Shown: positions 17,085 through 19,295 of the stretch, in pieces
How the letters are laid out: each line of letters opens with the position of its first letter
Numbering within the stretch: position 1 is the first letter of the stretch
IMG/VR virus record: IMGVR_UViG_2913172373_000003
Span: 1 to 35,874 of that record
DNA length: 35,874 bases
DNA from: a virus
Taxonomy: Duplodnaviria > Heunggongvirae > Uroviricota > Caudoviricetes
Direction: 5' to 3' (one strand)
Program-made: the position numbers and the translations under genes
Notes under the pieces: model-generated
What the model was told of the DNA's origin: nothing
The model's database searches: none
The model's input: only the letters and a program-made list of their open reading frames with translations

Positions 17085-17459
17085 TTATTGAGGACGCTGG
17101 AGTAATCCGTGCTGAGCGAGAGTTAGAGCAATGTCATAAGACCCTTGCCTGTCTTTATAGCAAGTTTTATCAACTAGCTCAGCTTTGCTAATTCCGGGTA
17201 AATCAAGAATCAGATTCGCAACTTCAATTGCCCTTTGGTACAACTTACCGATCTTTTTCTCCCCATGATGTGGTTTTACATTCTTCAGATAACCGCTATC
17301 CGCCAGAGCGAGAAACGTTGCCCTTGGGCATCCCTTCTTTCTTGCCGATTCGCTTTCTGTAACCTCAGCGACAGCAGCATCCCATGCATCACGAGGGGAT
17401 ATAGAATTATCAGAAACCAAATAATAAGCAATTAAAGCGGCGCGCGCGTATTGAGACAT
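17085..17459 (-). CDS. hypothetical protein downstream of Rz
   Basis: ORF-track frame 17085..17510; first ATG gives MSQYARAALIAYYLVSDNSISPRDAWDAAV...; moderately AT-rich; no family recognised. Confidence 0.45.
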   Translation of the reverse strand: MSQYARAALIAYYLVSDNSISPRDAWDAAVAEVTESESARKKGCPRATFLALADSGYLKNVKPHHGEKKIGKLYQRAIEVANLILDLPGISKAELVDKTCYKDRQGSYDIALTLAQHGLLQRPQ

Positions 17460-17497
17460 AATGCATCCATATACAAAAATCTTATGATAAGACTTTT

Positions 17498-17941
17498 CTA
17501 ATATGAACACTGTGATCTCACATACTCTTGCAGGCCATTCAATTGGTTAGTTATGGTTTCGATGCGCTCTCTGAGAACGAAATAATCCCGTTGAGCGGTG
17601 TCAGTAAGTCTGGGGCTGGCGCCATCATCCACGCCGGAGGCGGCGGTGGTTTTATGCATGTCCGGACAGACTGCTTTGACGTGCAGCCACTTACGACCAG
17701 CAGAAACATCAGCACGAAGACTTTCGATAGTCGCGTTAGCATCAGCAAGCTCCTTTGTGTATCTGGCGTCGAGTTCTGCTACATCACGTTGACGCTTCTG
17801 CATGTCAGCGATAATAGATGCGGCTTTATCACGCTGCTCTTTGTAGGCGATGGCGTTATCACGATAATGATTGACCGCCCATGACAGGCTGACGATGATG
17901 CAGATAACCAGAGCATAAATAATCGCGGCAACTCTGCTCAC
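17498..17941 (-). CDS. Rz: i-spanin Rz
   Basis: GTG start overlapping endolysin stop (GTGA) with GGGGGA SD; [34 protein letters not shown] closely matches lambda Rz. Confidence 0.85.
17551..17742 (-). CDS. Rz1: o-spanin Rz1 (lipoprotein, embedded in Rz in +1 frame)
   Basis: [26 protein letters not shown]...KPPPPPAW...TPLNGIIS matches lambda Rz1 lipobox and Pro-rich core. Confidence 0.8.
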
Positions 17942-18471
17942 TGATCTATCCCCCAACAGGCTAATGCGCTTTCCTGGTCACGACGAATAACCTGTCCGTA
18001 GCAGTTATTTGAACGTATGCGGCAATCACGCCCACCGTCCCTAATCCACCAGCGAATCGCCTCACAGGCACCTTTACGATCACCGGCATTAAGCCGCTTA
18101 TAAAACGTCGACGGGAAACACTTACCGGGACCAATGTTATAGGGACAAAATGACGCTATACCCGCTTTCTGTGGTTCGGTCAGTGGTACTTTAATATTGC
18201 GCTCCACCCATGCCAGCGCCTTATCACGTTCAATGGCGTTAACCTGGTCGCATTTTTCCTTCGACAGTTTCATACCGGAAAAAACGGGTTTTCCATCCAC
18301 CATCGTGGCACCCCTACAGATGGTCCAGATGCCGGAACCATCGCTGTATGCCGTTGTGTGGTTACCTTCTTTTTCATCCAGAAACTGGTCGAGAATATCA
18401 GGCGCAGGCGCACCGACGGCAATCAGTGCCAGAACGGCAGCCGACAGGCCGTATCTGATTTTTACGTTCAT
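17938..18471 (-). CDS. R: endolysin, T4-lysozyme-like with N-terminal SAR/signal segment
   Basis: 177 aa; hydrophobic Gly/Ala-rich N-terminus [18 protein letters not shown]; E-x8-D-x5-T catalytic spacing ([16 protein letters not shown]); paired with an S21-like pinholin. Confidence 0.85.
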
Positions 18472-18597
18472 GGATATTTATCAGGATTTATCGGTTTCTG
18501 AACCCTGGATATGTTAAGCATTCAGCCCGTCAGTGGTAGGACACTGGCGTAAACTCAACAAGGCGAGATGGCTGCCTCGCAAAGATAAGGAACAGAT

Positions 18598-18873
18598 ATG
18601 AGTGAAGAAAATAGCAAAGAATATACAGCGCTTTTTGACAGAATTTTTACTCTTGAGTTACAGGTCGGTTTTCTTCTCCCAAAGATAATCAAAGCCATGG
18701 ACGCACTAGGTAAGAATAACGCCGTGTCAAATTACCTGATCGCCGAAATGGAACATCTAATTAAAGAGATACCAAAGACCGATGCTCGTAATGATAAAAG
18801 AGTCCTCAAGGCTGCTGAAAATGCTCTTTCAACCGTGAAGCGCAGCTTAGACGCACCGCGCGATCAAGAATAG
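18598..18873 (+). CDS. hypothetical small protein, antisense within the lysis cassette
   Basis: 91 aa ATG ORF with AAGGA SD 6 nt upstream; terminator-like hairpin downstream; AT-rich; 3' end overlaps the convergent 161-aa ORF. Confidence 0.4.
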   Translation: MSEENSKEYTALFDRIFTLELQVGFLLPKIIKAMDALGKNNAVSNYLIAEMEHLIKEIPKTDARNDKRVLKAAENALSTVKRSLDAPRDQE

Positions 18874-19291
18874 TTTCTTTCATTTCGTCTAATGCAAGCA
18901 CCTCATCTTTTGTTGGGGTGCTTTTTTTCAATTCAGAGATATAGCACTCCAGTTGTTCAATACGTGATTCAATATCATCCTTTACAGACAGTATCGTATT
19001 ATCTGAACTGTTAATTTTTATGGTATACCGCGGCTCAAAACAGGGGCGCTTTTCATGCAACGCCCTCCCTTCACATAACTTGGCTGCAACATCCCGGAAC
19101 AATGCCTTTGCCTGTTTTATTGCCTCTTCCTCGTAAAATTCAAGAGCTGCTCCACCCTGTCGCTCAAGGTTGATGTTCAGATCAAAAATTTCACCGGCAA
19201 AATGTTCTTTGTCCTGTAAAGTTAAGATTACCGTAACTTTATTCTCAAAATTGCGGGTCCCTTTCACAATCAGTTCATAGTTTTGGGTCAT
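18806..19291 (-). CDS. hypothetical protein inserted between holin and endolysin
   Basis: 161 aa ATG ORF (MTQNYELIVKGTRNFENKV...) with GAGGGGAG SD lying in the holin 3' end; AT-rich codon usage unlike flanking lysis genes; no TM segments. Confidence 0.5.
   Translation of the reverse strand: MTQNYELIVKGTRNFENKVTVILTLQDKEHFAGEIFDLNINLERQGGAALEFYEEEAIKQAKALFRDVAAKLCEGRALHEKRPCFEPRYTIKINSSDNTILSVKDDIESRIEQLECYISELKKSTPTKDEVLALDEMKETILDRAVRLSCASRLKEHFQQP
18897..18928 (+). terminator. terminator-like hairpin for the plus-strand small ORF
   Basis: AGCACC-13 nt loop-GGTGCT followed by TTTTTT. Confidence 0.4.
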
Positions 19292-19295
19292 TATA

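Follow-up and report, generated by a model that had tools for sequence, protein, structure and literature searches.

The spacer between the pinholin gene (S) and the endolysin gene (R) of an Escherichia coli lambdoid prophage was analysed, at positions 18472-19295 of the virus record IMGVR_UViG_2913172373_000003 (IMG/VR; Caudoviricetes). The window, which is the whole stretch of 35,874 nucleotides (nt), carries the late region of the prophage on its minus strand. In the spacer there are two open reading frames (ORFs), ORF161 of 161 amino acids (aa) on the minus strand and the convergent ORF91 of 91 aa on the plus strand. We lean, without great assurance, towards the explanation that the spacer consists of two layers: a resident gene of the ydfR family, and a portable moron cassette in reverse orientation with conserved ends, a swappable cargo gene and a paired peptide encoded on the late strand. 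The main component of the spacer is ordinary and one layer is rare, and the locus is an unusual variant of what is already known and does not represent a system of a new kind.

The two layers were found to be distributed very differently. Among 5426 complete E. coli genomes, DNA resembling the core of ORF161 is present in 4331, with up to 8 copies per genome, and ORF91 in 56 (29 full length, some others being 5′-truncated remnants); DNA of the C-terminal extension of ORF161 (residues ~100-161) is present in 50. The exact 1-kb arrangement occurs only in strain M21816 among the complete genomes. An earlier note on this DNA had described the spacer as one AT-rich insert of two genes. This single island was rejected because of the different distributions, since the ydfR part is an ordinary resident and the rarity is limited to the ORF91 cassette and the final third of ORF161. 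The AT-richness itself is real but modest, with a G+C content of 0.38-0.46 across 18500-19300 versus ~0.47-0.52 in the flanking lysis genes.

Anatomy of the spacer and the resident ydfR-family gene

The minus-strand gene order is Q-type antiterminator, DNA methyltransferase, pinholin, ORF161, the plus-strand ORF91, signal-arrest-release (SAR) type lysozyme, and Rz with embedded Rz1. The holin of the identical locus in strain M21816 carries the annotation essD. The 161-aa ORF with its Shine-Dalgarno (SD) sequence in the 3′ end of the holin gene, the 91-aa ORF with its own SD, hairpin and T-tract, and the 3′ overlap of about 68 nt were all described in the earlier note and were confirmed at the following positions:

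19296-19511, minus strand: phage-21-type class II holin (pinholin), 71 aa, with the dual-start motif MKSM (PF04971, E-value 3.6e-35; phrog_9876/phrog_20, holin); its stop codon TAA is 19296-19298
19299-19306, minus strand: SD of ORF161, GAGGGGAG, within the last holin codons and 7 nt 5′ of the ATG, read from the sequence
18806-19291, minus strand: ORF161, 161 aa, ATG at 19291
19010-19291, minus strand: residues 1-94 of ORF161, the DUF1327/YdfR core (PF07041, E-value 8.3e-29, 100.1 bits versus a cut-off of 25)
18806-19009, minus strand: residues 95-161 of ORF161, a low-confidence linker and C-terminal helical hairpin, fused in frame to the core and homologous to the free-standing small late-strand ORF of the cassette
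18896-18930, plus strand: intrinsic terminator of ORF91, a 10-bp stem (18896-18923) followed by T7, inside the ORF161 coding sequence (terminator scan; folding z-score -4.05 versus shuffles)
18806-18873, both strands: overlap of ORF161 and ORF91, 68 nt, 3′ end to 3′ end
18598-18873, plus strand: ORF91, 91 aa, the cargo gene of the reverse-oriented moron
18587-18592, plus strand: SD of ORF91, AAGGAA, 5 nt 5′ of the ATG at 18598, read from the sequence
18523-18580, plus strand: structured 5′ leader of ORF91 (alignments A5 and A8), with CAGCC at 18523-18527, hairpin 1 at 18528-18549, hairpin 2 at 18563-18580, and GGCTG in the loop of hairpin 2 at 18570-18574
18479-18515, plus strand: 5′ end of the cassette shell, a TCAGG...CCTGG element and a -10-like box TATGTT (18510-18515), a candidate promoter conserved across genera and three cargo genes
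17938-18471, minus strand: SAR-type lysozyme R (endolysin), the downstream neighbour (PF00959, E-value 1.1e-23)

ORF161 also matches phrog_2735 and phrog_2091, and over residues 1-98 it is 51% identical to YdfR of E. coli K-12. The Qin prophage of K-12 has the order essQ, a gap of 4 nt, ydfR (103 aa) and rrrQ, and the ydfR stop codon overlaps the rrrQ start (ATGA). The gap between the holin gene and ORF161 is likewise 4 nt. ORF161 and Qin ydfR thus share a homologous N-terminal domain, the place directly behind a class II holin gene and upstream of a lysozyme gene, and the strand of the late operon, so the relationship to ydfR that the earlier note had raised as a possibility was borne out. 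The same note had taken S and R to be adjacent in such cassettes. Phage 21 does have them side by side, but in E. coli prophages most cassettes of this type carry ydfR between the two genes. Because core-like DNA is so widespread and because Qin has the same arrangement, a gene between S and R is normal for this type of cassette, of which the layout of phage 21 is not typical.

ORF161 differs from Qin YdfR in its length (161 versus 103 aa), in an added linker and helical hairpin of other origin, and in the reverse gene that lies before R. Its profile match and its position are those of the DUF1327 family, whereas its architecture is not, the family members being short single-domain proteins of ~103-116 aa whose stop codon overlaps or abuts the R start. 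In the AlphaFold2 model the core is predicted with moderate confidence as three strands and a helix (strands at residues 3-14, 18-26 and 36-43, helix at 50-74), followed by a disordered linker (71-105) and a helical hairpin (103-157).

DUF1327 is scarcely mentioned in the literature searched. The sole functional data on the family concern YdfR of K-12, for which two-hybrid and pull-down experiments are reported to show binding to the N-terminal, catalytic half of RNase E; residues 1-72 suffice for it. The protein also co-purifies with RNA, and its overexpression alters few transcripts (PMC13232886). By homology with the K-12 protein, the YdfR core of ORF161 probably also binds RNase E and/or RNA.

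The annotation of the longer family members in RefSeq is inconsistent with their reading frames. The long form is recorded as a pseudogene with 'missing C-terminus' or is left unannotated despite an open frame of 176 aa, as in E. coli G1/2 (locus L002, 3095-3436) and at many other loci. The short-form family model has probably produced these calls as annotation artefacts.

The reverse-oriented cassette and its exchangeable cargo

ORF91 matches phrog_18136 (function unknown) with an E-value of 2e-50, and homologues of conserved length and 55-68% identity are found in Citrobacter, Enterobacter and Salmonella. Outside the overlap with ORF161, the ratio of nonsynonymous to synonymous divergence (pN/pS) is 0.07-0.35 at a synonymous divergence (pS) of 0.6-0.8, while the antisense frames give ratios of 0.2-5. 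As judged from these ratios, ORF91 is a real gene whose reading frame is under clear purifying selection. The family is very small, as a search of 1.84 billion representative proteins with its profile gave only 9 matches. The AlphaFold2 model is all-helical, with a predicted local distance difference test (pLDDT) score of 80, and the product is predicted to be a cytoplasmic helical-bundle protein without signal peptide or lipobox. ORF91 had no match in Pfam, NCBIfam or PADLOC, where nothing was found at E-values up to 1 for ORF161 either.

The homologues of ORF91 always face against the surrounding late genes, and they occupy at least six different insertion contexts, among which are the following:

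Salmonella: between tail genes L and M, or adjoining the tape-measure gene
Enterobacter: upstream of HNH and terminase genes
Citrobacter: upstream of the holin gene
Phage CharmingMan: at the genome end, beside a glycosyltransferase gene
Distant members of the family: in the Q-holin region, between a methylase gene and Q-side genes, or between the lysis and terminase genes

The Qin locus and the loci with short-form ydfR are without the ORF91 cassette. Two scans of genome contigs with ORF91 profiles confirmed no loci, and a scan of metagenomes gave no new lineages. Because ORF91 is reverse-facing at varied sites of the late region and rare in E. coli, its behaviour is that of a moron rather than of a lysis gene. 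Absence from relatives, an own terminator and differing G+C content and contexts were all found for it, and the conserved -10-like box is a candidate for its promoter. The proposal of the earlier note that the spacer carries a moron was therefore upheld for ORF91, which has its own SD and terminator and a lower G+C content, is missing from Qin, and lies backwards at other places in other prophages.

The conserved ends of the cassette, with the promoter-like box, hairpin 1 and the terminator with its small ORF, form a shell that is common to three unrelated cargo genes. Besides ORF91, a cargo gene of 86 aa (ORF86) is found in PhiR5_1-type phages and in loci with a 183-aa YdfR, in the same slot between S and R of E. 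coli (phage PhiR5_1, locus L003, 2684-2944, plus strand; L069, 640-900). Another one of 83 aa (ORF83) lies upstream of the holin gene in Citrobacter freundii (L082, 2679-2930, minus strand). Neither is detectably related to ORF91; hhalign found no relationship between ORF86 and the ORF91 family, and Pfam and NCBIfam gave nothing significant for ORF86 or for the small partner ORFs described below. The label 'DUF1823' that ORF86 has in phage records was examined and found unsupported (E-value 0.023, below the cut-off). A decayed shell was also observed in Salmonella (L079, 2690-2900), in which the small ORF and the leader hairpin are kept and the cargo has been deleted. Just upstream of it, in the same interval between Q and holin genes, lies a hicAB toxin-antitoxin pair (L079-L081, 1-1310), which makes the interval look like a hotspot of accessory genes.

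At the 5′ end of the shell, homology across genera (alignments A4 and A10) starts ~120 nt 5′ of the ORF91 ATG and only ~8 nt from the endolysin ATG. The -10-like box occurs in the variants TATGTT, TAAGGT, TATGGT and TATGAT, and in all lineages it lies 8-9 nt 5′ of the leader. From this architecture, independent transcription of ORF91 would start at the candidate promoter.

Hairpin 1 of the leader is 97% paired across ten lineages. Two pairs have compensatory changes, and one position is U-G, C-G or U-A, which fits pairing in a plus-strand RNA. The covariation score of this hairpin was higher than those of all 500 shuffles and all slid controls. The pentamers CAGCC and GGCTG are invariant and occur together in all leaders of the ORF91 type, and both are missing from the leaders of the ORF86 and ORF83 types. 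A pseudoknot is possible because GGCTG in the loop of hairpin 2 is complementary to CAGCC, and the co-occurrence of the two invariant pentamers suggests that the ORF91-type leader folds in this way. Rfam had no match in the leader (18472-18597) or the terminator, and the four weak matches elsewhere in 18300-19400 (E-values 0.32-3.4) were far below the gathering scores. It was also observed that the leader is better conserved than the protein after it in the window and in L011, L008, L004, L038, L073, L076 and L071, where CAGCC, hairpin 1, a spacer and hairpin 2, GAGGGATGGCTG(A)TTACCTC, are followed by the SD. We regard the ORF91-type leader as a candidate for a new cis-regulatory RNA.

In Citrobacter, Enterobacter and L082 the terminator stem at the other end of the shell is maintained through compensatory and G-U substitutions, which work on the cargo strand only. 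By its sequence, the terminator is one-directional, the late (minus) strand being without a U-tract.

The late-strand partner ORF and the C-terminal third of ORF161

The C-terminal part of ORF161 contains the antisense of the ORF91 terminator and of the last 22 codons of ORF91, and the breakpoint of DNA similarity within ORF161 lies at ~18984-18990. A tblastn search located homologues of this C-extension next to ORF91 homologues whose surroundings lack a DUF1327 core. Opposite the terminator and the 3′ end of the cargo gene, a free-standing ORF of 51-59 aa is present in Salmonella, Citrobacter, Enterobacter, phage CharmingMan and L073 (for example MTLEQRVEILERSVSGLKKSVPGKDETLALDELRETILDWASCLSCASPL...). 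Each of these five ORFs has an SD of the GGAG type 5-8 nt 5′ of its ATG, and several gene-calling pipelines have already called them. Their N-termini are not homologous among the five lineages, and the chance that the part outside the overlap stays open is 0.05-0.29 per lineage. In E. coli the partner segment has no start codon and is in frame with two different YdfR core/linker alleles, which gives forms of 161, 176 and 211 aa. In total, a related late-strand partner ORF is present in 8 of the 9 lineages of the ORF91 family that were examined. The part of the earlier note that saw a convergent pair with antisense overlap was thus sustained, while no evidence for a toxin-antitoxin or a known defence function came from PADLOC, Pfam or NCBIfam.

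Three observations argue that the late-strand peptide is under its own selection, a question that pN/pS does not settle. In L076 most of the conserved motif LNWAARL is located past the stop codon of the cargo gene, so that constraint on the cargo gene does not explain why the motif is conserved. In L078 the partner, of 144 aa, aligns with ORF161 over both core and C-terminus (hhalign probability 87%, E-value 4e-6). The synonymous divergence of ORF91 also drops from 0.60-0.83 outside the overlap to 0.38-0.49 inside it. Because the L078 partner aligns throughout, the combination of a YdfR-like core and a helical hairpin, convergent with a gene of the ORF91 family, is not confined to E. coli. The idea that the C-extension was an insertion accident specific to E. 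coli was dropped on account of the same distant homologue.

A further likeness was noticed between the small ORFs of 63 aa, whose C-terminal tail ends in …KITGSLRAPVKL, and the linker of the 116-aa and 176-aa YdfR forms (…GRITGSLKTPP) (P0171-P0175; alignment A1, columns 88-112). It points to a further exchange of modules between ydfR genes and the small ORFs of the cassette.

Origin of the locus, competing explanations and known systems

According to the explanation by two layers, the ydfR-family gene is the usual occupant of the place between S and R and, as the anatomy and the parallel with Qin suggest, would be translated from the Q-dependent late mRNA right behind the pinholin gene. The moron cassette would have replaced the 3′ end of ydfR together with the ydfR-R junction. 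The late-strand helical peptide opposite the terminator and the 3′ end of the cargo gene would in E. coli have become the C-terminal third of YdfR, by which ORF161 arose. ORF91 would form a separate transcription unit, active most likely in the lysogen, with a transcript that ends at the hairpin within ORF161. After induction, antiterminated late transcription would run the opposite way, and because the late strand has no U-tract, the Q-modified transcription would pass the hairpin and yield ORF161 together with RNA antisense to ORF91. Because of this antisense RNA, we infer that the products of ORF161 and ORF91 belong to opposite phases of the phage life cycle. The two proteins may also bind each other through the helical hairpin, a contact suggested by co-inheritance alone.

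An extended form of this explanation is considerably less probable, and it is put forward only tentatively. It would make the shell an undescribed portable element of enterobacterial lambdoid prophages, the peptide a functional partner of the cargo that was captured by an RNase E-binding YdfR, and the leader a new pseudoknotted cis-regulatory RNA.

Several results weigh against the two-layer explanation or parts of it. A scan of 18300-19500 for the sigma-70 consensus gave no promoter, and fold and sequence searches with ORF91, including sequence-profile searches of the PDB, gave no functional hint. The AlphaFold2 model of ORF161 is of low confidence as a whole (pLDDT 57), and RNase E binding is known solely for the 103-aa protein of K-12, which is 51% identical to ORF161. 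The most distant member of the family, L071, has an unrelated convergent partner of 61 aa, and the L076 partner matches the long DUF1327 forms in hhalign only weakly and by the C-terminal motif alone (E-value 0.04). The pN/pS of the partner ORFs and the C-extension is 0.35-0.97, no better than that of other reading frames. The E. coli alleles are without the otherwise conserved tryptophan of the LDWA motif. Because this tryptophan is lost and because most differences among the E. coli alleles of the C-extension change an amino acid, the extension may be subject to drift in this species.

These last points also favour a passive mosaic, in which the ORF91 moron acts alone, for example on superinfecting phages or on host physiology, while the small ORFs and the C-terminal third of ORF161 arise by read-through of cassette DNA, have no function and seem conserved only because of constraints on the terminator and the ORF91 3′ end. 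We consider this doubtful, though it deserves serious attention. The E. coli alleles vary at almost every DNA difference, a part of the conserved peptide, LKKSxPxKxE, is the antisense of the terminator stem, and the NCBI Prokaryotic Genome Annotation Pipeline (PGAP) often leaves the long form unannotated or calls it a pseudogene. However, SD, ATG and open frame are kept in five lineages despite non-homologous N-termini, and the fusion stays in frame on two different YdfR core/linker alleles and also in L078, a distant protein. The position of the L076 motif outside the cargo ORF and the drop of ORF91 synonymous divergence in the overlap also speak against mere read-through.

The convergent 3′ overlap and the co-inheritance, which are conserved across lineages and insertion sites, could alternatively belong to an antagonist pair of toxin-antitoxin, abortive-infection or exclusion type, in which ORF91 made in the lysogen and the late-strand hairpin protein neutralise each other, with antisense control as in type I systems. 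The exclusion genes of Pseudomonas phage Fc02 provide a precedent (PMC9936078). Such a pair is nevertheless improbable here, as the searches of PADLOC, Pfam and NCBIfam found no match; no link of the locus to virulence or defence was found. Neither ORF91 nor its partner is hydrophobic or resembles a known toxin; both are hydrophilic helical proteins, and their genes are not a co-directional operon. The C-terminus of the partner moreover changes with the cargo (ORF86 occurs with modB, and ORF83 with a different tail), and co-variation driven by the overlap fits as well as a specific interaction. The unrelated L071 partner is a further point against this proposal.

The endolysin gene requires separate consideration. 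Its start has no recognisable SD (18472-18485), and the nearest upstream late-strand stop codon, which is that of ORF161, is 334 nt away, with ORF91 in between. The stop/start overlap of ydfR and R known from Qin (ATGA) has been removed here by the insertion, as a side effect of which the endolysin would be uncoupled from the translation of the upstream gene; the loss of this coupling may lower endolysin synthesis. The earlier note had proposed altered lysis timing, and the insert might have been selected because convergent transcription and the lost coupling would lower or delay endolysin synthesis relative to the holin. The missing ATGA overlap and the 330 nt of antisense-transcribed DNA before an SD-less start are in agreement with it. 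As the selected role of the cassette, lysis timing is nonetheless very improbable, because the cassette occupies many sites outside the lysis genes, such as the gap between tail genes, the vicinity of terminase genes and the region upstream of holin genes. In addition, going by the host fields of their records, phages that carry the ORF86 version in this slot were isolated as plaque formers on E. coli C and K-12.

Accessory genes in phage genomes offer several comparisons. The moron concept came from comparisons of HK97 and HK022, and bor of lambda is an accessory gene in reverse orientation next to the lysis genes. Like the lambdoid morons, ORF91 is an additional gene, of lower G+C content and with a terminator of its own, placed against the late operon between genes that are adjacent in relatives, and it lies in or beside the lysis cassette. 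It differs in that its promoter is only a candidate, its shell is reusable with alternative cargo, and its terminator is coding on the opposite strand; unlike Bor, it has no signal peptide or lipobox. Type I toxin-antitoxin systems with convergent RNAs that overlap at their 3′ ends are known from Bacillus prophages, namely txpA/RatA and bsrG/SR4. ORF91 and ORF161 resemble them loosely, as convergent units in prophage DNA with a 3′ overlap of tens of nucleotides, whereas both partners here are conserved protein-coding ORFs and no small hydrophobic toxin is found.

In Pseudomonas phage Fc02, olg1 and gene 10 are antisense-overlapping genes of the lysogen and lytic strands, and both give superinfection exclusion (PMC9936078). 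The pair is comparable in that a lysogen-strand and a lytic-strand gene of a temperate phage lie in antisense overlap. The Fc02 genes differ by their unrelated sequences and by their place in the immunity region and not the late region; their exclusion activity has been demonstrated. A shell with swappable cargo, dual-strand coding across a terminator, capture of a peptide by YdfR, and the conserved ORF91 leader were not found described in the literature searched.

Two neighbouring genes were noted in addition. The lysis cassette ends with a further uncharacterised accessory gene, an ORF of 141 aa with a DUF6979 match (17085-17510, minus strand; E-value 3.4e-29). It lies directly 3′ of Rz, overlaps the Rz end, and is missing from the M21816 locus, which is otherwise nearly identical. 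The N6/N4 DNA methyltransferase gene (350 aa, 19579-20631, minus strand; PF01555, E-value 1.7e-42) lies between the Q region and the holin gene, inside the late transcription unit.

For the biology of these prophages, the apparent split of S and R in a textbook lysis cassette is mostly a widespread and uncharacterised ydfR gene. The long-form YdfR genes that are unannotated or called pseudogenes are flagged here as probable annotation errors. The proteins of the ydfR family gain a second, separable module beside the RNase E binding reported for K-12 YdfR. The reusable moron shell, with its exchangeable cargo and its terminator coding on both strands, provides a compact model for how accessory genes enter late operons without breaking them, and also for how antisense overlap may tie a lysogen-phase gene to a lytic-phase gene. 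If the proposed capture is true, the partner peptide would link an accessory protein expressed in the lysogen to the control of RNA decay in late infection.

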